Shown: positions 44,962 to 57,508, counted from the stretch's first letter. The stretch: 64,000 nt of DNA from an uncultured Bacilli bacterium (GCA_947628965.1 CANRBV010000002.1:16247-80246), one strand, 5' to 3'. The notes: generated by a model from the sequence alone, not told the origin. Translations and numbers: made by a program.

Positions 44962-46842
44962 TTAAAAGCCATGGCCTCCTCCGCCGCCTCCGCCGAAGCC
45001 TCCACCGCTAGAGAATCCACCTCCGCCTCCACTTCCGCTAGAGTAAGAAGATGATGCACGACTTTCGGTAATTGCAGTAGTATTACTTTGTACAGCACTG
45101 TGAACAATATGATTAAAAGAATTAAAGAAATGATAATCACTAAATGTATTCGAAACCTCTATATCTATGTCAGAACTTGCTAATTCTTTTATTTTAACAT
45201 TCATAGCTTTAGATACTTTATCAGCAAGTCCAAAAACAGTAGCATATACCATATAGCGTTCCCACAAAGCAATTTCTGGTAATTCTTTAGTATCAAATGT
45301 TCCAAAATCATTTAAGAAATTCTTAAATGCTTTCCACTTGGCATAATCTTCATTTCCTTTCTTAGTTCTTTTAAAAAAGGATAAAGTATATATAAAGAAA
45401 ATAACCGAAACAATTACATTAATTTTTGTAAAGGGTAATATAACGTTTAATCGATTTTTTAAAACTGTTAATAGAACACTAAAAAATAAAAAGAGTATTC
45501 CCGTTACTTTTGCAGGTACATTATTTTCAAAAAAATTTTGTTTCTTTGCATCGTTTAAAACACTTTTTTTCCAAGCTGTATAATTAGCTGAAAATTCTTC
45601 ACATGTATAACTTTGTTCTGCATAGGCTCTTAATTCAATTGTTGAAAAACGATTTTCTTTGCCTATTTTATTAAATAAAAAATCAATCAATTGTTTTTCC
45701 GTTGCATTTAGGTTTTCTTCATTTTGTAAAACAAAATCGTATTCCATTTTACCTGATTTAGTAGGCATTTTTTCAGCTTTAATATTTTTTTTGTAAATTA
45801 AATTCAATATAGAAGCTGATAATGCATTAGGAGTAATATTTTTATGCATCAAATAATCAACAACCTCTACATTATATTCATCGATAAATTCACGGTTATA
45901 TTTTAAATTAAAGGAAGATTTATATTCCTTATCAAATTTATGATAAATGAATATCCATGCTATTAGTAAACTTAATAAATGAACAATTGAAGAAATAAGT
46001 ATACTATAATAAAATAATTTCATTCTAAATCTATCTTTATTTGCTACATCTGCTCTTTTTGTTTCGACCATAACAATTTTATCAAGAGCCTCTTCATTTG
46101 TTTTTTTACTAACTTTATTCTCGTCAACAAGATTTTTAGAAAAAGTAGCACGAATATCTACAGGACTATAAGCATTTAATTTTTTTACAGTTGCAAGTAA
46201 GTATTGATTATCATAAGGTTGAATTTCTCCTGCCATATCTCCATGAGCCCAAACTTTAAATAAACCACTAGTATCTTTAGATGGCAAATTTAACTTTATT
46301 TGTAAATCATTAATAGCATCACTGTATTCTTCACCAATGAAAGTAAAATATAATTCTCCAACATCTTGATGCAATACAACTACATCTTTAACTATGTATT
46401 TTATTCGAAAAGCGACTTGTTCTTTTTCGGATTTAAAATACATTTTGTAACTAAAACCATTAGCAATATCACTTACTAAATAACCTAAATTGGCTGCTTT
46501 TCCTTCTTTTAAAGTGACAAAATCCGTATCTTTTAAAGTATCAAAAGTAACATTATCTACTTTTTTAGCAGCAATATTTTCTATTTCAATTCCAGTAGCA
46601 TTATAAATGGCATTACTTTCATATCCACTTGTTCCAAGTTTAGGATTTTTGTAAACAATCTCTCTAATATACCCATTAAAGCTTCCTTTTAAAACAATTA
46701 ATTCTGTTACTTCTAAATTACCATTTTCTAAAATATCAGCATTGATATAATAATTTTTAATTTTATAATTTACTGTATCTGCATTCGTATAAATTGGCAT
46801 TAAAAATATAAACGCAATTATATACCAAATCCATTTTTTCAT
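44962..46842 (-). CDS. DUF2207-family membrane protein with Gly-rich C-terminal tail
   Basis: Start at ATG 46840-46842 (GGGAGG RBS) gives signal peptide MKKWIWYIIAFIFLMPIYTNA. It has an internal TM pair and the C-terminal tail SGGGGGFSSGGGFGGGGGGGHGF. It is paired with lemA. Confidence 0.7.
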   Translation of the reverse strand: MKKWIWYIIAFIFLMPIYTNADTVNYKIKNYYINADILENGNLEVTELIVLKGSFNGYIREIVYKNPKLGTSGYESNAIYNATGIEIENIAAKKVDNVTFDTLKDTDFVTLKEGKAANLGYLVSDIANGFSYKMYFKSEKEQVAFRIKYIVKDVVVLHQDVGELYFTFIGEEYSDAINDLQIKLNLPSKDTSGLFKVWAHGDMAGEIQPYDNQYLLATVKKLNAYSPVDIRATFSKNLVDENKVSKKTNEEALDKIVMVETKRADVANKDRFRMKLFYYSILISSIVHLLSLLIAWIFIYHKFDKEYKSSFNLKYNREFIDEYNVEVVDYLMHKNITPNALSASILNLIYKKNIKAEKMPTKSGKMEYDFVLQNEENLNATEKQLIDFLFNKIGKENRFSTIELRAYAEQSYTCEEFSANYTAWKKSVLNDAKKQNFFENNVPAKVTGILFLFFSVLLTVLKNRLNVILPFTKINVIVSVIFFIYTLSFFKRTKKGNEDYAKWKAFKNFLNDFGTFDTKELPEIALWERYMVYATVFGLADKVSKAMNVKIKELASSDIDIEVSNTFSDYHFFNSFNHIVHSAVQSNTTAITESRASSSYSSGSGGGGGFSSGGGFGGGGGGGHGF

Positions 46843-46876
46843 GATAGCCTCCCAAAAAGAAAATTTTAAGCATTGC

Positions 46877-47425
46877 TTAAAATTTAACTTGTACATTTGC
46901 TCTTTCAGTTTCATTTGCTTCAAAAAACATTTCTGTTTTAAATTTGAAAATAGAAGCAACAAAATTACTTGGTATTGTTTGTACTTGATTATTATAAGTT
47001 AAAACTGTATCATTATAGAATTGACGTGCACTTGCAATTTTATCTTCAGTTTCTTGTAATTCTGTTTGCAATGCCACAAAATTTTCATTCGCTTTTAAAT
47101 CTGGATAACTTTCTGCTAAAGCAAACAATTTGGAAATAGCTTTTGTAAGTTCTCCATCCGCTTTCATTTCTTCTTCTGGAGTATTTGCACTTAGAAAAGT
47201 ATTTCTCGCTTTAACAACGTTTTCTAATGTTTCACTTTCATGTTTTGTATATCCTTTTACAGTTTCCACTAAATTAGGTATTAAATCAAATCTTCTTTTT
47301 AATTGTACATCTATTTGTGCCCATTGATCCTTTACTCTATTTCTTAAAGTAACCAATTTGTTATAAGTTGATATAACAAACAAAATAATGAAAATAACTA
47401 TAGCCAGTACTATCCATTTAAACAT
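46877..47425 (-). CDS. lemA: LemA family protein
   Basis: N-terminal TM followed by [39 protein letters not shown]. Confidence 0.8.
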
Positions 47426-47492: not shown

Positions 47493-48305
47493 TTGGTGAA
47501 ATTTATGATTTTATTTACTGGATTTCTAATTGGTGTGGTAAGTCTAATCCCAGGTATAAGTGGAGGCACCATTTTAATGCTAACAAAACAATATGAAAAT
47601 ATCGCTTATGCTATTACACATTTTAAAGAAAAGAATAATTTTTTAACTCTATTTATTTTGATAATTGGAGTTATTCTAGGGGCTATTACATTTGCTAGAA
47701 TTATAGAATTATTTTTTTACTTTGCCCCAAATGCAACAATAACGTTATTCAGCGGTTTTGTTTTATTTTCAATTCCCGATCTCATAAAAAGTGAAAAAAT
47801 AAAACCAAATCTTGTTTGGTTTTTTCTAGGAACTCTACTTATTTATTTTTTATCTTGTATTCGCATTCCAACAACCCCTGTCATTATCAATTACCCAAAA
47901 ATTACAATTCTTTTTTTAATTATTTTCACTTTTTTTGGGATTTTAGATGGTTTTTTTACCATTTTACCAGGTATATCTGGCTCTATGATAATGATGATAC
48001 TGGGGCCTTATTTTTTATATAAATCTTACCTAGCCAACTTAAATATCCATAACCTTACTTTTCTTTTTCCACTATTTTTTTATTTTATTGGAGACATTTT
48101 AGGATTTTTTATTGGCAGTAAAGTTTCATTGTATTTTCTAACAAAGCATCGTAAAAAATTTTTAAGTTTACTGTTAGGAATGGTAGTCATGAGTGCATTA
48201 ATACTCTTACCAATTCATAATATTTACCCAAATAATATATTATTATACGTTGCTGTTTTTTTAGTAAGTTTTATTCTATGTCAAGCCTTAAAATTAATTA
48301 AATAA
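47493..48305 (+). CDS. DUF368-family membrane protein
   Basis: Duplicated (I/L)PGISG(G/S) motifs in a polytopic membrane protein. Confidence 0.55.
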   Translation: MVKFMILFTGFLIGVVSLIPGISGGTILMLTKQYENIAYAITHFKEKNNFLTLFILIIGVILGAITFARIIELFFYFAPNATITLFSGFVLFSIPDLIKSEKIKPNLVWFFLGTLLIYFLSCIRIPTTPVIINYPKITILFLIIFTFFGILDGFFTILPGISGSMIMMILGPYFLYKSYLANLNIHNLTFLFPLFFYFIGDILGFFIGSKVSLYFLTKHRKKFLSLLLGMVVMSALILLPIHNIYPNNILLYVAVFLVSFILCQALKLIK

Positions 48306-48312
48306 TTTCTAT

Positions 48313-49890
48313 TTAACTGGCTGATTCAGAACTAGCATTTTTTTCTACAGACAAAACGATACGAAAACCAATCGTATTATCTTGGGAACCATCTTTATTT
48401 GAAAAGCCAAAAATACCAGCATTTGTTGGAGAAGTCATATTAAATCCCCGTATAAAATAGTAGTTAGTATTAAATACGAATTCAGCTTTGTCATTCCAAA
48501 ATGAACTTTGGTTACTTTTAAAAGGACCAACTTCTCCTGTTGCATCTCCCAAAATTCTTGTACTATAGTTATCATTTTTTGTATTATAATTATAAATATC
48601 ATAATATTTATTCTCTTTTGGAAAGTTTTCTTCTGTAAAATTTGACTTTGTACCATATTGCAGTGTCGTACTGTCATTTCCATACATTATTGCCATAACT
48701 TCTTCTCTTGCACCACCACTCATATCATAAATTCCTGTATAATTTCCAGTTGTACTTGCTTTTACACTATTAATGTCATTATAGTTATAAGAGTTGCTAT
48801 TACTTTTACCTGCACTTACTGCACCAGCAGTTTTATTAGCCGTTGCTCCACTAAATCCTGTAATATAATTACTATTATTATTTATATATACTTCTTCACA
48901 AGATATTACGCCATCTTCTGCTTTTGTACACTTACCATAAATGCTTTTTGCTAGATATGCAACAGCTCCCCACTCTGTATTCTTCATTAAATGACTTTGT
49001 AAATCCGATTTATAATTAAATGAAGTTCTAAAAGCATTTCCGATACTTATCTTTCTCCAACTATAAACATTTGGTCTTATTATAATGTTTGCAGCCTCTG
49101 TATCGTTATTATGATTTTGTGCAGTTGTTTTATTTGTTATATTACTATTACTGGTCTCAAACTTCCCTACCCAAAATCCGTTAGTGTTTTCGAAAGCTAA
49201 GAATGCAGGATGGGTCATCCACATACCTTCTTTACAACTTCCTTCATCTCCAGATTTTTCAGGAGTTTTACATTCTTTATAATCTGAATCTGTTTCTTCA
49301 TCATCTTTGGTATTTTCTAGTCCAAACTCAATTTCTATTGCTTGATTTTGTTTTTCCGTATTTAATGTTCCATTATCATTTTCATAATTTCCTAATTGTT
49401 CATCAAATAGTTTATATTTATACTTAGGTATCCAGACAAAATAACTTTCGATATCACTCTCGGGTATTTGGTCTCCATTTTTATAATCATCCGCTGATTT
49501 TCCATCTACTAAGATTACGGCATTTGCCCAATTCTTTTTTTCATAACTATACCAATTATGGGTTATATCAGTTTTATATACATTTCCACTACTAGCTCCT
49601 ATACTAACAGGTATCATTCCATCTCCAAGCACTGGATCTGCTCCATTTAAAAAATCTTCTTTATAAATTTCACTTGGTTTATCGATATCAGGAGATTCTA
49701 AATCTGGATTTCGTAGAAGTTCAAAACCAGGAAGATCGTTTAAATACTCTTGGATATTTTGTTTTTCATGATTTAATAATACTCTATTTTTAGCATAACT
49801 AGCTGAAATCATTAAAAGAGTTACTAAAAAAACTAAAAAGAAGGAATAGATTAAAGAAATCGCTATAAACCCCTTATTGTTATTCTTCAT
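48313..49890 (-). CDS. membrane-anchored protein with pilin-like N-terminus and an FGE-sulfatase (SUMF1/EgtB/PvdO-like) domain
   Basis: N-terminus MKNNNKGFIAISLIYSFFLVF resembles the ComGC-like pilin at 57508 but lacks Glu5. The C-terminal half has NTEWGAVAYLA, GIYDMSGGAREEV and GFRIVL, which resemble FGE-sulfatase motifs. Confidence 0.45.
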   Translation of the reverse strand: MKNNNKGFIAISLIYSFFLVFLVTLLMISASYAKNRVLLNHEKQNIQEYLNDLPGFELLRNPDLESPDIDKPSEIYKEDFLNGADPVLGDGMIPVSIGASSGNVYKTDITHNWYSYEKKNWANAVILVDGKSADDYKNGDQIPESDIESYFVWIPKYKYKLFDEQLGNYENDNGTLNTEKQNQAIEIEFGLENTKDDEETDSDYKECKTPEKSGDEGSCKEGMWMTHPAFLAFENTNGFWVGKFETSNSNITNKTTAQNHNNDTEAANIIIRPNVYSWRKISIGNAFRTSFNYKSDLQSHLMKNTEWGAVAYLAKSIYGKCTKAEDGVISCEEVYINNNSNYITGFSGATANKTAGAVSAGKSNSNSYNYNDINSVKASTTGNYTGIYDMSGGAREEVMAIMYGNDSTTLQYGTKSNFTEENFPKENKYYDIYNYNTKNDNYSTRILGDATGEVGPFKSNQSSFWNDKAEFVFNTNYYFIRGFNMTSPTNAGIFGFSNKDGSQDNTIGFRIVLSVEKNASSESAS

Positions 49891-49936: not shown

Positions 49937-50092
49937 CTAGCAATAATTTTTATTATAAATTCTTCGTATAGAAGAACCGACTGTACGACCCAATTCCAGT
50001 ACGGTAGTAATTAATCTAGCGACAGAATTTAATAAATTTGAAGTAATGGCTCCTCCTTTTAATTCATATAATTCAATTTCTTTTAATTTCAT
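49937..50092 (-). CDS. double-glycine-leader peptide (51 aa), candidate two-peptide bacteriocin component
   Basis: Absent from the track because it is under 60 aa. Translation MKLKEIELYELKGG/AITSNLLNSVARLITTVLELGRTVGSSIRRIYNKNYC; RBS AAAGGAA 8 nt upstream. Confidence 0.55.
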   Translation of the reverse strand: MKLKEIELYELKGGAITSNLLNSVARLITTVLELGRTVGSSIRRIYNKNYC

Positions 50093-50103
50093 ATTATTCC
50101 TTT

Positions 50104-50241
50104 CTAATTACATTTTAAAGGGCGTAGAATTCCATCAACTACTCCTGCTACAAAAACACCAACAGCTGTTAAAATACCAAGAAGTGTATAGCTAATTCCC
50201 CCTCCTACAATTTGATTTAATTCTTGCTCTTTTAAATACAT
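50104..50241 (-). CDS. double-glycine-leader peptide (45 aa) with GxxxG-rich hydrophobic core, candidate two-peptide bacteriocin component
   Basis: Absent from the track. Translation MYLKEQELNQIVGG/GISYTLLGILTAVGVFVAGVVDGILRPLKCN; RBS AAAGGTGAG. Confidence 0.6.
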   Translation of the reverse strand: MYLKEQELNQIVGGGISYTLLGILTAVGVFVAGVVDGILRPLKCN

Positions 50242-50248
50242 ATCCTAC

Positions 50249-50674
50249 TCACCTTTCTATTATTGATTTTGCTATTTTTTTAAGCAATCTTTCTTTGTTT
50301 TTATAAATTTGCATTGTAACAAATTCATTTTGATTCCCCTGAAATTTTTTTACTTTTAAAGAAATATTTTGTAAGGCATTATTATTACTATCCAAAACAG
50401 GATCTGAAAATGAAACGGTTTCTATTTCATAAGTTTTATGATTAATTTTAATAAATTCATAAATAAAATCTGTAGTGGGATAAAAAAAGTTAATAGTGCA
50501 TTCTTCTTGGCAAAAAATTTGTCCTTTTACTTCTAAAACATCATAAGCTTCTTTTTTGTAAGCATAAAATAAAAGTATTAGAAAAAGGCAAAAAGGAATT
50601 AACCAAAAAAAGCTATATTTATTTTTATCCTTATTTAAATAACTTGGTAAATTGTATTTTAAATATTCTGACAT
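50249..50674 (-). CDS. single-TM protein, candidate bacteriocin immunity or short accessory protein
   Basis: 141 aa with one TM segment; overlaps the ABC transporter stop by 16 nt. Confidence 0.35.
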   Translation of the reverse strand: MSEYLKYNLPSYLNKDKNKYSFFWLIPFCLFLILLFYAYKKEAYDVLEVKGQIFCQEECTINFFYPTTDFIYEFIKINHKTYEIETVSFSDPVLDSNNNALQNISLKVKKFQGNQNEFVTMQIYKNKERLLKKIAKSIIER

Positions 50675-52725
50675 AAAAGCTTGCTAAAATCATAAACTTC
50701 ATCAAAATATTGTTCCTGTTTTTTATGGCTTACATAAATAATCGTTTTATCTTTAAAATATTCCTTTAATTTTTTTATAATACTTATTTCTAATTCATCA
50801 TTTACTTCACTTAATGCTTCATCTAAAATAAGAATTTGAAAGTTGTTAAGTAAAGCCCTTGCTAAGATAATTCGTTGTCTTTCACCACCAGAAATATTAG
50901 TAGAATCTTTCATAAGAAACGTTTCATAACGTAATGGTTTTTTAGAAACAATACTCTCTATTTCACATATTTGTAAAATATCTAAATATTTACTTTCTAT
51001 TATCTCACGATTTAACAAAATATTGTTTTTAATGGTATCTTGAAATAAATTTTCTTTTTGACTTACATAAGTAATATTTTTGCGAATAGTTTCTAAGCTA
51101 TAGTCGTTAAGACTCACTTCTCCAATCTTAATATTATTATTTTTTACTTCAATTAAACGACTTAAAATTTGACATAAGGTACTTTTTCCACATCCGCTTG
51201 CTCCCTTAAATAAGACACAACTTTTTTCTTTAATTTCCAAAGAAAAATCTTGAAATAATTTAGAAAAATCATTATAAGAAAAATTTAAATGTTCTATTTT
51301 AACATTACCATTTTTAAAATCTTGTAGACCGATTTTGTCTTGCTCTTCTTCAATAGTATAAAAATCATTTAATTTTTGAATATTTACTTTTACATAATTG
51401 TAGCTTGGAATTAAATTAATAATTGATTTAAATGGGGTGAAGAAGAAGGAAATTAAACTTTCAAATGTTATTAAATTAATTAAACTACAACGATTGTTTA
51501 ACATTTCATATAAACCTATTGAAATAAGACAAAAATCAAGTAATTGCTCTAAAAAAGTTGCTAAGCTACTTGTTTGCATGACTTTCTTGTTTAAATCATA
51601 AGATTGATTTAAAAATTGAACTAAATGCATTTCAATTTTTTGAAAAAACAATTGCAAAATATTTAGATTTTTAAGAGAAATAATTGATTCTACATTTTCT
51701 AAGACGGTCGATTGAAACTGCACTTCACTATCATTTACTTGCAAAGCTTTCTTATACATTATTTTGCCAGAAATCATTCCAAAAACAATATAACAAAAAA
51801 CAAAAAAACAAAGAATAAAAAATAGTTTTTTATGAATGTGCCATAGAATGATGCCTACACTAAATGATAAAATAGAATCTAAACCTATCGTGACAATAAT
51901 TTCGGAAAATACTTCTTTCATATTTTCTAATTCTTTTATACGAACCATAATTTCACCAGTTGTTCTATCTTTCATAAAATAATGAGGAAGTAAAAATAAA
52001 TGATGCAAAAAATTGTAATACAATTGTCCATCTAAATTTTTATTTAAATAAGTTTTAAAATGATTGCGAAAAAACATAAACAAATACTTTAGAACATGTA
52101 AAGCTAAAAAAATAAGCATTACACACAAAAGAACTTTTTTATCTTCGCTATCTTGAACAAAATTTAAGCCAACTTTAAAATAAAAGCCAGTTAAGATTGT
52201 TATAAAAGTCAAAAACCCTGTTAAGAAAAAAAGTTTTAATAAGTTTTTCTTTTCATTTTTAAAGAACTCTATGATCATTTCCAACAAATGATTTTGATTC
52301 ACTACTTTTGGAAGAGGATTTTTAGGATACAAGCACAAGATATTACCAGTCCAAATAGCTTCAAAATCATTTTTAGTCATTTTTATATTCCCTTTAGCTG
52401 GATCCATTATTTCTATGTCTAAAGAATTTATTTTATAGATTACTAGGAAATGTGTGTAATGATTGATTTCGACATGTGCAATAATGGGTAATAAAGTTCC
52501 TTCTAGATCTTTTAAACTTTCTAATTTCATTCCATAGGCATCAAATCCATAATTTCTAGCTGTTTTAATAAGATGATAAGCCGTTGTCCCCTCTATAGAC
52601 GTTTGCGTATCTATCCGTAATATTTCAAGTGGTACATATCCGCCATAATATTTTATAATAGAAAGTAAAGAACAGATTCCACAATCTTTTAAATCCTGTT
52701 GTCTAACTACAATATTTTTTTTCAT
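50659..52725 (-). CDS. peptidase-C39-domain bacteriocin/peptide ABC exporter (ComA/LagD type)
   Basis: N-terminal C39 Cys motif QQDLKDCGICSL, 6 TM segments, Walker A GASGCGKST, signature ISGGERQRI. Start ATG 52723-52725 with AGGAGGTG RBS; the track's GTG start reads through the RBS. Confidence 0.85.
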   Translation of the reverse strand: MKKNIVVRQQDLKDCGICSLLSIIKYYGGYVPLEILRIDTQTSIEGTTAYHLIKTARNYGFDAYGMKLESLKDLEGTLLPIIAHVEINHYTHFLVIYKINSLDIEIMDPAKGNIKMTKNDFEAIWTGNILCLYPKNPLPKVVNQNHLLEMIIEFFKNEKKNLLKLFFLTGFLTFITILTGFYFKVGLNFVQDSEDKKVLLCVMLIFLALHVLKYLFMFFRNHFKTYLNKNLDGQLYYNFLHHLFLLPHYFMKDRTTGEIMVRIKELENMKEVFSEIIVTIGLDSILSFSVGIILWHIHKKLFFILCFFVFCYIVFGMISGKIMYKKALQVNDSEVQFQSTVLENVESIISLKNLNILQLFFQKIEMHLVQFLNQSYDLNKKVMQTSSLATFLEQLLDFCLISIGLYEMLNNRCSLINLITFESLISFFFTPFKSIINLIPSYNYVKVNIQKLNDFYTIEEEQDKIGLQDFKNGNVKIEHLNFSYNDFSKLFQDFSLEIKEKSCVLFKGASGCGKSTLCQILSRLIEVKNNNIKIGEVSLNDYSLETIRKNITYVSQKENLFQDTIKNNILLNREIIESKYLDILQICEIESIVSKKPLRYETFLMKDSTNISGGERQRIILARALLNNFQILILDEALSEVNDELEISIIKKLKEYFKDKTIIYVSHKKQEQYFDEVYDFSKLLCQNI

Positions 52726-52730
52726 TTTTT

Positions 52731-52780
52731 TCACCTCCTACTTATATATATACACTCTAAATTTGCAATTTCCTTTTTTT
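52731..52780 (-). promoter_or_regulatory. conserved 50-bp promoter/operator-like element, copy A (contains dyad AAATT-TGC-AATTT, TATATATA and RBS)
   Basis: 46/50 identical (ungapped) to 61364-61413, which lies upstream of comEA. Confidence 0.4.
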
Positions 52781-52815: not shown

Positions 52816-53016
52816 TTATTTTTCATAAAAAATCGTATCGGGAGTACAACCCAGTATATTAGCAATATCTATGGCAATTTCATAATAAAGTTTTCTTTCT
52901 TTATGTTCCAATTGCCAATAAAAAGATTTGCTAATTTTTAACATAGTGGCCATATCTTGATAACTTAAGTTTTTTTGCATTCTTAATTTTTTTAATTTTT
53001 TATAACACTTTTTCAT
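52816..53016 (-). CDS. small XRE-family HTH regulator (about 66 aa)
   Basis: HTH LSYQDMATMLKISKSFYWQLE; ATG 53014-53016 has GAGGGA RBS. Confidence 0.55.
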   Translation of the reverse strand: MKKCYKKLKKLRMQKNLSYQDMATMLKISKSFYWQLEHKERKLYYEIAIDIANILGCTPDTIFYEK

Positions 53017-53118
53017 TTTATCCCTCATTTTTTAAATTATAGCACATTTTTATTACAATAACCCACCAATTTACGAATTTAAACTATTTTTTAGAGAAAA
53101 TTAGTATTAGGTGATTGT

Positions 53119-53565
53119 ATGTTAGATAAATTAAAGGAATTAAGAGAATACGAAGGTCTAACACAAAGAGAAGTTGCAGAAAAATTACATGTTAAAAGAA
53201 GTACATATGCTGGATGGGAAAATGGTAAAGATATTATTCCTTTAGAAAGATTAAATGCGCTTGCCAATCTTTATCACACTAGCTTGGATTATTTAATCGG
53301 CAATTCGCCAACCAAAGAGCAAGTTTTAGAGATTCAAAAGATTAATCAACAAGAATTTTCCCAAAATTTAAAAAAATTTCGAAAAGAAAAACATCTTACT
53401 CAAGAAAAATTAGCTGAAAAATTAAAAACAAGCCAATCTAATATTCATAAATATGAGAATAATAAGAGTTTAATTACAACCACATATGCCTTAGAATTCA
53501 CAAAACAGTACCATTATTCTTTAGATAAACTATTAGGAAGAAAAAAAACAACTAGCACAAAATAG
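53119..53565 (+). CDS. tandem-HTH XRE-family regulator
   Basis: Two HTH_3-like modules: LTQREVAEKLHVKRSTYAGWE and LTQEKLAEKLKTSQSNIHKYE. Confidence 0.65.
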   Translation: MLDKLKELREYEGLTQREVAEKLHVKRSTYAGWENGKDIIPLERLNALANLYHTSLDYLIGNSPTKEQVLEIQKINQQEFSQNLKKFRKEKHLTQEKLAEKLKTSQSNIHKYENNKSLITTTYALEFTKQYHYSLDKLLGRKKTTSTK

Positions 53566-53573
53566 TTGTTTTT

Positions 53574-53816
53574 TTAAAACATTTTATCAATATTTTTTGG
53601 AACTTTGTCATTAACAATTGTATTAATAATTTTATCTTCTTGTTCTTTCGTAACATTTTTACCTGTCATTAGACTTAATGTTGATATAACTTCTCTTAAC
53701 GTATTTTCATCTTTCATATTTCCTTGTTGAAGTTTTTTAGCTAAATTAACAATTGTATTTTTATCAACTTTAGTCTTTTTTTCGACTTTTTTAAAAAAGT
53801 CGTCTTTTAATTCCAC
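53574..53816 (-). CDS. small helical hypothetical protein (80 aa)
   Basis: ORF between XRE modules; no family recognised. Confidence 0.35.
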   Translation of the reverse strand: MELKDDFFKKVEKKTKVDKNTIVNLAKKLQQGNMKDENTLREVISTLSLMTGKNVTKEQEDKIINTIVNDKVPKNIDKMF

Positions 53817-53862
53817 TTTATCACCTACTAAGTATTATATGACAAAATTCTAATGGGTTTCT

Positions 53863-54075
53863 CTAATTTTTAAACTCTTCATAAAAAATATCATCAGGTT
53901 TTAAATGAAAAATAGAAGCAATTTCTTTAGCCATATCATAAGAAAGACGCCTATTTTTATGTTCAATTTGCCAATAATAAGCTTTGCTAATATTTAAAGA
54001 TTTTGCCATATCTTCACAACTTAAATTTCTTTTTTCACGTAAATTTTTTAATTTCTTTATATAGGTTGACTTCAT
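53863..54075 (-). CDS. small XRE-family HTH regulator (paralog of the 52816-53016 product)
   Basis: LSCEDMAKSLNISKAYYWQIEHKNRRL. Confidence 0.55.
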   Translation of the reverse strand: MKSTYIKKLKNLREKRNLSCEDMAKSLNISKAYYWQIEHKNRRLSYDMAKEIASIFHLKPDDIFYEEFKN

Positions 54076-54195
54076 AACTCCTCCGAATGATATTAATCAT
54101 ACCCTATATTTTAATAATTGTCAATTTTTGTGCAGTTCTAGTGTAGTAGACTTGTAAAATATAAAAATCTATTATTTATATTAAGGATGTGAAGT

Positions 54196-54453
54196 ATGAA
54201 AATAGAAACAATTATCGGAAATAATTTAAAATATTTTCGATATCAATCTAAATTATCTCAAGAAAAGTTTTATGGACAATTTGGAATGAATTATCGCTAT
54301 TTAGCAAGCATCGAACGTGGAAAAATTAACATGTCTGTAGAATTTTTAGACAACTTAGCTAAAGTATTAAAAGTGGATATTCGTGATTTTTTCAATCCCG
54401 ATAAAACCAGATGGGTATTTAAAAAACGTATTGATGGAAAAGAGAATAAATAA
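54196..54453 (+). CDS. XRE-family HTH regulator
   Basis: LSQEKFYGQFGMNYRYLASIERGK. Confidence 0.55.
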   Translation: MKIETIIGNNLKYFRYQSKLSQEKFYGQFGMNYRYLASIERGKINMSVEFLDNLAKVLKVDIRDFFNPDKTRWVFKKRIDGKENK

Positions 54454-57097: not shown

Positions 57098-57508
57098 TTA
57101 AGTTCGATCACAAGTTGAATTTATTTTTTCATCATTAAAATGAACATAAAAACGATTATATTTGATATATACAATTAATTCCATATCATCCATTCCTGAA
57201 TTATCACGAGGGTCTAAAATGTAAGGAGCAATATTATTATCCTTTTTCAAATCTCCACTATTAATTAAATCCATAACTGTAATTTTTTTGCTGGAATTAC
57301 CATCATAATTTTCAGTAAAACTTTCTTTACGATCTTCTCCATATAATCTAGCTGCTGTTTCAATTGAATCTATTTTTTTACAATACATATTCGTTTTTAA
57401 TTTATTTGAAATCGAAATGGTACTTGGCACTGCAACGGCAATTAATATTGCTAAAATCACAATAACAGCAAGTAATTCTACCAATGTAAATCCTTTGTTA
57501 TTTTTCAT
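57098..57508 (-). CDS. type IV pilin-like / ComGC-like pseudopilin
   Basis: Start ATG 57506-57508 (GGGTGAG RBS) gives MKNNKGFTLVELLAVIVILAILIAV, a prepilin class III leader with Phe+1 and Glu+5. Confidence 0.7.
   Translation of the reverse strand: MKNNKGFTLVELLAVIVILAILIAVAVPSTISISNKLKTNMYCKKIDSIETAARLYGEDRKESFTENYDGNSSKKITVMDLINSGDLKKDNNIAPYILDPRDNSGMDDMELIVYIKYNRFYVHFNDEKINSTCDRT

Follow-up and report, generated by a model that had tools for sequence, protein, structure and literature searches.

A candidate class IIb-type two-peptide bacteriocin pair encoded with a C39-ABC exporter in uncultured gut Bacilli

What do two very small genes, each headed by a double-glycine (GG) leader and sharing an operon with a C39-domain ABC exporter, do for the bacterium that carries them? 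The question is raised by a 64-kb stretch of DNA (27% GC) from an uncultured Bacilli bacterium (GCA_947628965.1 CANRBV010000002.1:16247-80246), here called the window, whose numbering is used for all positions not assigned to another locus. Its two small minus-strand open reading frames (ORFs), peptide 1 and peptide 2, are probably the precursors of an unmodified class IIb-type two-peptide bacteriocin-like pair, and an antimicrobial function of the pair is somewhat favoured. Judged by its sequence, the pair is an uncharacterised member of the known class IIb-type two-peptide bacteriocins.

The first matter is whether such short ORFs are genes at all. Both are present with the coordinates and translations first reported for them. 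They were described as hidden, which is true of a six-frame track that omits ORFs under 60 amino acids (aa), but public gene callers call both on every contig that bears the locus. As predicted, each ATG has a good ribosome-binding site (RBS) 7-9 nt upstream (AAAGGTGA for peptide 1, AAAGGA for peptide 2), and the RBSs and short spacers of both genes are kept among orthologues. Gly-Gly occupies residues 13-14 of both precursors, in agreement with the proposed 14-aa leaders, and both leaders match the class II consensus (L at -12, E at -8, L at -7, I or L at -4, then G-G). A strict GG-leader pattern applied to small ORFs matches peptides 1 and 2 and nothing else in the window, against a mean expectation of 0.3 matches per window from dinucleotide-type shuffles. 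Conservation in related genomes, proposed at the outset as a check, is found. Word-indexed homology searches return 13 homolog clusters for peptide 1 and 14 for peptide 2, at 64-90% identity, and 27 distinct related loci carry both genes; the most conserved part of both peptides is the predicted mature region. Among orthologues from 11-12 genomes, the ratio of nonsynonymous to synonymous substitution (dN/dS, Nei-Gojobori) in the mature part is 0.13 for peptide 1 and 0.12 for peptide 2, at a proportion of synonymous differences (pS) of about 0.6, and the leaders are more relaxed (0.37 and 0.43, respectively). A substitution pattern of this kind indicates, with near certainty, that both small ORFs are real genes under strong purifying selection.

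The second matter is the company these genes keep. In the direction of transcription, and all on the minus strand, the order is an XRE-type helix-turn-helix (HTH) gene, the exporter, p141, peptide 1, peptide 2 and p525. The HTH gene is separated from the exporter by 81 nt, the end of the exporter gene overlaps p141 by 16 nt, and the remaining gaps are 7 nt (p141 to peptide 1), 11 nt (peptide 1 to peptide 2) and 46 nt (peptide 2 to p525); no terminator-like site was found inside the run from exporter to p525. The peptide genes had been placed immediately 3' of the exporter, which has to be corrected, as the p141 gene intervenes. The identification of the exporter itself stands: its Peptidase_C39 (8e-33), ABC_membrane (3e-18) and ABC_tran (5e-25) domains are all found by Pfam, it aligns over its full length to PCAT1 of Clostridium thermocellum (4RY2, 1e-84) and to ComA of Streptococcus (8HF7, 3e-81), and the catalytic Cys/His/Asp positions (DCG...THF...MDP) are conserved with respect to both, with the ATPase motifs likewise intact. 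Unlike PCAT1 and ComA, the window exporter has a small bitopic protein as its partner. The catalytic Cys/His/Asp lie in a C39 domain at the N-terminus, fused to an ABC exporter with six transmembrane (TM) segments, which places the protein among the peptidase-containing ABC transporters (the PCAT/AMS group). Its scores on TIGR01193 (355.6 bits, cut-off 523.85) and on NF045998, the Mbov_0121-family PCAT model (321 bits, cut-off 500), are both under the curated cut-offs, and for this reason its sequence is that of a divergent branch of the PCATs. (The ORF list starts the protein at a GTG at 52734, giving 691 aa; public callers use an ATG 9 nt downstream, giving 688 aa.) Both peptides are predicted, with good confidence, to be substrates of this exporter.

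Published criteria for class IIb bacteriocins (PMC2850506) describe preforms with a double-glycine leader of 15-30 residues, peptides carrying GxxxG (or AxxxA or SxxxS) motifs, a dedicated ABC transporter whose peptidase domain cleaves the leader, and an immunity gene in the same operon. The window locus has adjacent peptide genes on the same strand, 11 nt apart with no terminator; a double-glycine leader on each, whose 14 aa are one under the quoted range (the mode for the family is 14-15 aa); a dedicated C39-ABC exporter in the same operon; and GxxxG in both peptides. The proposal of a class IIb two-peptide bacteriocin is supported, as a candidate assignment, because everything on this list that can be looked for in sequence is present except a recognisable immunity gene. 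The features of the locus are collected in Table 1.

Table 1. The peptide pair and its neighbours on the minus strand of the window
Feature	Position	Strand	Description	Basis
Peptide 1 precursor	50104-50241	-	45 aa, ATG start	
Peptide 1 leader	50200-50241	-	MYLKEQELNQIVGG, 14 aa	
Mature peptide 1, predicted	50107-50199	-	GISYTLLGILTAVGVFVAGVVDGILRPLKCN, 31 aa, hydrophobic, 3159.8 Da	
Peptide 2 precursor	49937-50092	-	51 aa, ATG start	
Peptide 2 leader	50051-50092	-	MKLKEIELYELKGG, 14 aa	
Mature peptide 2, predicted	49940-50050	-	AITSNLLNSVARLITTVLELGRTVGSSIRRIYNKNYC, 37 aa, cationic amphipathic, 4110.7 Da	
PCAT exporter	50659-52734	-	C39 protease, 6-TM domain, ATPase	Pfam, PDB alignment
p141	50249-50674	-	bitopic membrane protein, 141 aa	synteny
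p525	48313-49890	-	downstream membrane protein	position, conserved N-terminal module
XRE-type HTH protein	52816-53028	-	70 aa	Pfam HTH_19 3e-11

The third matter is how far the peptides extend beyond this genome, and what they resemble. An exhaustive profile search with peptide 2 over 1.84 billion representatives clustered at 50% identity finds at least 290 at E <=1e-3, including 35 at E <=1e-10, and nearly all are 50-57 aa long. Among the best 150 of these 290 matches, the GG leader is recognisable in 137, GxxxG plus a small residue in 135, a Cys within the last eight residues in 132, and exactly one mature Cys in 114. In an alignment of 40 diverse members no column is invariant beyond the leader GG and G35xxxG39; at least 90% of family members keep the C-terminal Cys. 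For peptide 1 the invariant columns (25 diverse members) are G14, G37, P41 and C44, and G33 is conserved in at least 90%, one member having SxxxG instead. The best model for the window copy of peptide 1 is NF038034 (lactococcin G-beta/enterocin 1071B), which it matches at 34.7 bits (E 1.5e-8); 24 of the 25 diverse members also match it weakly, none at the cut-off, and the window copy scores best. The likeness to lactococcin G that had been suggested for this peptide is therefore borne out as far as that score goes, but it remains under the 37-bit cut-off, and the lactococcin G chains in the PDB gave no match. On TIGR03949, the class IIb model for lactobin A and cerein 7B, the window copy reaches 11.7 bits (cut-off 21.5). 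Because 6 of 10 divergent relatives of peptide 1 do pass this model (21.6-28.4 bits), the peptide-1 family is, by its sequence, one that borders TIGR03949. The peptide-2 family has weak matches, none above threshold, to class II/IIb models only, which is consistent with similarity driven by the leader.

The comparison with lactococcin G and enterocin 1071 (NF038034, NF038035) can be carried further. In these systems too, two adjacent GG-leader peptides share a locus with a C39-ABC exporter, the single GxxxG of each partner is proposed to hold the two helices together as a parallel dimer across the membrane, and one partner has a cationic C-terminal tail. Unlike lactococcin G, the window locus places the hydrophobic peptide first, has no LagC-like immunity gene, has an accessory protein of 141 aa, and has a conserved single Cys in each chain. 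The lactococcal accessory proteins are much larger, HlyD-type proteins, and we know of no Cys in lactococcin G. Lactobin A and cerein 7B share with the window family a GG leader and a Gly-rich hydrophobic core; their model TIGR03949 has neither the G-x-x-D-G-x-x-x-P-x-x-C-N tail of the window family nor an obligate amphipathic partner. Plantaricin EF/JK and carnobacteriocin XY, for which nuclear magnetic resonance structures have been solved, are likewise helical peptides of 25-40 aa with GxxxG-mediated pairing (PMC2850506) and with immunity proteins of one to four TM domains (PMC6957408). They have no detectable sequence similarity to the window pair. Their regulation is by a three-component quorum-sensing module; unlike them, the window locus has no kinase or response regulator nearby.

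Comparative genomics shows that the two peptides travel together. A scan of one genome per GTDB species, queried with the peptide-2 alignment, yields 17 loci (handles such as L006 denote related loci), nearly all in metagenome-assembled genomes from rabbit and mouse gut that carry the label uncultured Bacilli or Tenericutes. GC content is 23-33% at every locus. Two labels, "Muribaculaceae" for L010 and "Agathobacter" for L022, are probably binning errors, because these contigs have 26-28% GC and gene content in common with the Bacilli loci and, for L010, the synteny as well. The order ABC-p141-pep1-pep2-(pilin-like gene)-PopT-LemA-DUF2207 is kept in 12 species-level genomes, where identity to the window is 62-90% for the peptides, 76-86% for LemA, 55-78% for the exporter and 31-67% for p141. 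In distant loci a core of ABC-pep1-pep2, with or without a p141 analogue, lies by a gene for the CCA-adding enzyme or by rpsU-yqeY. Among the contigs of ten distant peptide-2 representatives, nine have enough upstream sequence, and all nine have a peptide-1-like ORF directly upstream that ends G-x-x-(D/N/S/H/Y)-G-x-x-x-P-x-x-C. Altogether the pair, in identical gene order, is found in 27/27 distinct related loci with enough flanking sequence, and pairing and order are strict across roughly 30-90% identity.

The peptides themselves look built to associate. Mature peptide 1 is hydrophobic, as had been proposed (net charge +1, grand average of hydropathy, GRAVY, 1.29), and is essentially a TM helix; peptide 2 is indeed cationic and amphipathic (net +4, hydrophobic moment 0.69), and AlphaFold2 (AF2) predicts it as one long helix with a predicted local distance difference test (pLDDT) score of 80 overall and >90 across the core. 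Of the tandem GxxxG motifs attributed to peptide 1, one is canonical (G33-V-V-D-G37, precursor numbering) and the other, preceding it, is GxxxA. Peptide 2 has a GxxxG of its own (G35-R-T-V-G39), invariant in the family and overlooked in the original prediction. The Cys near the C-terminus of both peptides, also noted there, is co-conserved in relatives: a single C-terminal mature Cys occurs in 22/22 (peptide 1) and 21/22 (peptide 2) tabulated pairs, and in both partners of all pairs recovered later. An interchain disulfide is a natural hypothesis, because a lone Cys cannot bridge intramolecularly. Taken together, it is quite probable that the two peptides are an obligate heterodimer.

A mechanism along class IIb lines would run as follows. 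The C39 domain would recognise the 14-aa leaders, cut after Gly14 and export peptides of 31 and 37 aa, and p141 would help export, shield the producer, or both. Once outside the cell, the two helices would pair up in a membrane by way of their GxxxG faces, with the embedded Asp and Arg forming a pair, and the C-terminal Cys of each peptide might be joined by an interchain disulfide. The heterodimer would then permeabilise the membranes of related bacteria, probably after docking on a conserved membrane protein. We regard as unlikely the more novel readings, that the mature peptides form a covalent, disulfide-linked heterodimer in GxxxG register with a buried Asp-Arg pair, or else that the pair is a non-antagonistic membrane factor, passed on vertically in gut Bacilli with reduced genomes and exported by a PCAT and partner module of the Mycoplasma type.

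A number of observations weigh against the bacteriocin reading or against parts of it. Contact between the two GxxxG motifs is one such part. Across 28 pairs, the residues embedded in the motifs covary, Arg in peptide 2 going with Asp in peptide 1 in 19/19 cases and non-Arg residues with Asp in 2/9 (the remaining non-Arg pairs, peptide 1 named first, are S-Y, N-V twice, S-E twice, H-D and Y-K); this association has p = 3e-5 by Fisher's test, but p = 0.06 once the pairs are collapsed to ~11 lineages. A prospective test of the covariation failed, in that a Lys-bearing peptide 2 (P0055, L037) pairs with Tyr, not Asp. As support for a contact between the motifs, the covariation is thus suggestive. 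Disulfide formation is uncertain in the anaerobic gut; a limited literature search found no precedent for an interchain disulfide among two-peptide bacteriocins, and to our knowledge no characterised unmodified two-peptide bacteriocin has one. The window peptides stay under every curated cut-off, and peptide 2 is without any model in Pfam or NCBIfam. The resemblance to lactococcin G does not reach threshold and comes mostly from the leader and the stretch around GxxxG, and searches of both peptide profiles against PDB sequences found no similarity to solved two-peptide bacteriocins. (One PDB match, "AGvvDGilRPLKC" to a fatty-acid synthase, E 0.26, was set aside as a 13-residue coincidence.) No known immunity family was recognised among the locus proteins by Pfam, NCBIfam or PDB sequence searches, and the accessory content varies, L018, L019 and L021 being without p141 and the pilin-like gene missing in several lineages. 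Conservation is higher in the peptides than in the exporter beside them, an unusual pattern for bacteriocin loci of the strain-variable sort; the module is syntenic, slowly evolving and apparently vertically inherited across many species; and searches of plasmid and phage collections gave no match to it.

Several of these points are what would be expected if the exported pair had instead a non-antagonistic, lineage-conserved role, as a self-acting membrane heterodimer, a sporulation or envelope factor, or an intercellular signal. This explanation, unlikely in our estimate, is the strongest of the rivals. It would account for synteny in housekeeping contexts across at least 12 species, for peptides whose rate of evolution is as low as that of the flanking LemA and lower than that of the exporter, for the lack of a recognisable immunity gene and for the blank plasmid and phage searches. 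It also fits the character of peptide 1 as essentially a TM helix, the presence of spoVIF, spoIIIAH, gerE and gerM next to the module in several contexts, and the resemblance of the exporter and its partner to the uncharacterised Mycoplasma pair NF045998/NF045999. Against it, whatever similarity there is at the level of families is to class II/IIb bacteriocins, neither a receptor nor a kinase lies nearby, and conserved chromosomal bacteriocin loci exist. The apparent lack of an immunity gene is weak evidence in any case, because class IIb immunity proteins are diverse, with one to four TM domains, and single-TM ones without a recognisable family are known (PMC6957408).

A class IIb pair can also be set against two one-peptide (class IId-type) bacteriocins that act independently and have only the exporter in common, which we consider improbable. 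Multi-bacteriocin loci served by one PCAT are common, and one related locus (L037) has a third GG-leader ORF. However, independent peptides would not readily be reconciled with the strict pairing and order at 27/27 loci, nor with GxxxG motifs invariant in both families, a Cys co-conserved in both and the suggestive Asp-Arg covariation.

Less probable again are quorum-sensing pheromones of the ComC/BlpC type processed by the PCAT. The Pfam ComC model does match the peptide leaders at 18 bits (cut-off 20.4), BlpC models also match weakly and under threshold, and several HTH regulators lie close by in the window. Such pheromones are defined by an adjacent cognate histidine kinase and response regulator and by a short mature signal. 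In the 20 kb scanned around the locus no histidine kinase or response regulator is found, ~10 kb being covered on either side, nor is there one in related loci, and the HTH genes close by do not accompany the module in other genomes. The mature peptides, at 31 and 37 aa, are long, membrane-like and paired, unlike known pheromones, and their mature regions are more conserved than their leaders. Finally, although the ORFs are short and small ORFs abound in a 27% GC genome, the idea that they are unexpressed chance ORFs is effectively refuted by their conservation (RBSs and spacing included, with at least 290 peptide-2 representatives, 35 at E <=1e-10) and by their substitution pattern (dN/dS 0.12-0.13 at pS 0.6); shuffled sequence gives 0.3 strict leader matches per window.

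If the pair is a class IIb bacteriocin, p141 and p525 are candidates for accessory and immunity functions. The p141 protein combines a helix at its N-terminus with a single TM helix, a beta-rich domain outside the cytoplasm and a conserved KNKEKLLKKI tail, and sits between exporter and peptides in most loci. Its window copy has no match in Pfam or NCBIfam, NF045999 included; its AF2 model, from a 3-sequence alignment, is of low confidence (pLDDT 57); its profile finds only noise among PDB sequences (LspA E 0.07, streptokinase E 0.27); and scans of individual members against Pfam and NCBIfam give noise apart from a single match. That match, of the L020 homolog to NF045999 ("MAG1140 family protein"), spans positions 5-126 of 126 and scores 28.2 bits against a cut-off of 35, so that p141 and MAG1140 would be at best distantly related. 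The accession adjoins NF045998, the Mycoplasma PCAT model that the exporter resembles at 321 bits. Both window-family scores are under cut-off, but the likeness on both sides suggests an exporter and small-partner module common to wall-less relatives; a literature search found no paper giving a function or substrate for the Mycoplasma pair. Possible roles of p141 are in export, as an accessory, in immunity, or in both; immunity is conceivable because class IIb immunity proteins with just one TM domain are known.

The p525 protein begins with a pilin-like N-terminus (MKNNNKGF/IAISLIYSFFL) that lacks Glu5. Residues 1 to ~75 (~49666-49890) are the only part common to the 234-272-aa proteins that relatives encode at this position. 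This N-terminal module of ~70 residues is 59-75% identical in L006-L017, and a 65-aa protein encoded behind peptide 2 in the distant locus L038 is a further instance of it (31% identity, E 2e-9). The remainder of the protein is variable, a p525-type gene is missing from L018-L021 and from the rpsU-linked loci, and p525 has no Pfam, NCBIfam or PDB match. It is a possible immunity or associated protein, its membership in the system being uncertain. The single-TM candidates for immunity are then p141 and the p525 N-terminal module, neither of them universal among the loci. As a separate observation, p525 looks chimeric: residues 73-515 are 46% identical to a protein that L006 encodes elsewhere, adjoining der (L006:530-1768). 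The C-terminal motifs GIYDMSGG and GFRIVL are reminiscent of formylglycine-generating-enzyme-type domains, although the Pfam, NCBIfam and PDB searches gave nothing. A canonical type IV pilin or pseudopilin with a similar signal-peptide start (MKNNKGF/TLVELLAVIVIL, Pfam N_methyl 9e-10) is encoded at 57098-57508 (-), between holA/comEC and der.

The 70-aa XRE-type HTH protein is a possible local regulator and not a conserved part of the module, being kept among related loci in L006 only. It belongs to a cluster of four small XRE-family HTH genes at 52816-54453, directly upstream of the exporter and interleaved with a spoVIF homolog. The cluster includes two 70-aa paralogues (57% identical) and one double-HTH protein of 148 aa, and is not conserved with the module elsewhere, partial retention in L006 excepted. 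In four other loci the gene directly upstream of the exporter encodes a CmpB-family membrane protein (PF06541; L007:4818-5600, L014:6559-7302, L021:4632-5063, L023:2020-2814), and spoIIIAH, a gerE-type regulator and a gene resembling gerM precede it on the opposite strand. The module evidently lies repeatedly beside sporulation genes, and the "Tenericutes" hosts evidently carry them.

On the other side of the module, a gene for a PopT/DUF368-type polyprenyl-phosphate transporter (47493-48305, +) abuts it throughout the clade. A PopT-anchored metagenome scan, which returned almost no close relatives, found the pair in 0/80 loci (positive control 12/12). Because these 80 distant PopT loci lack the peptide pair, the adjacency looks like clade-specific synteny and not a functional link, and a tie to undecaprenyl-phosphate metabolism, or to UppP-type receptors of the undecaprenyl cycle such as lactococcin G-type bacteriocins use, was dropped. 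The DUF2207 membrane protein further along (44962-46962, -) has a long Gly/Ser-rich tail (...SSGSGGGGGFSSGGGFGGGGGGGHGF), and the longest ORF of its gene overlaps the end of the upstream LemA gene. Two of the related loci contain additional small ORFs. The third GG-leader ORF of L037 (L037:2460-2582, 40 aa, MEKINSKNLLEYVGG/SLLGTLTHILISVISLTLTIRKVVK) comes immediately before peptides 1 and 2, and because of it some family members may be three-peptide loci. At L020:6362-6520, immediately following peptide 2, is a short ORF without a leader. Its AGRIVGTYIR stretch is similar to the peptide-2 core GRxxGSxIRR, and the ORF might be a decayed peptide-2 duplicate or a small immunity-like membrane peptide. 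Rfam places no family at gathering threshold on either strand of the 64-kb window, and no riboswitch, T-box or rRNA was found. Literature searches for the motifs GSSIRR, GSAIRR, RPLKCN and GRTVGS returned unrelated papers only, and the Hungate1000 supplements are without these motifs.

The finding overturns no existing concept and holds no conceptual surprise, but it offers a good experimental model. The clean signatures of the pair (one invariant GxxxG and one co-conserved Cys per chain, and a candidate buried Asp-Arg pair) make the class IIb helix-helix model testable here, and an interchain disulfide, if true, could be the first among unmodified two-peptide bacteriocins. For the Mycoplasma-type PCAT and its MAG1140-like partner, the locus also offers a first hypothesis of what they do. 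If the peptides are active, they would represent a large uncharacterised family of two-peptide bacteriocins (290 clusters or more at 50% identity) in the uncultured, AT-rich Bacilli and "Tenericutes" of rodent and rabbit guts, bacteria about whose competitive biology next to nothing is known.

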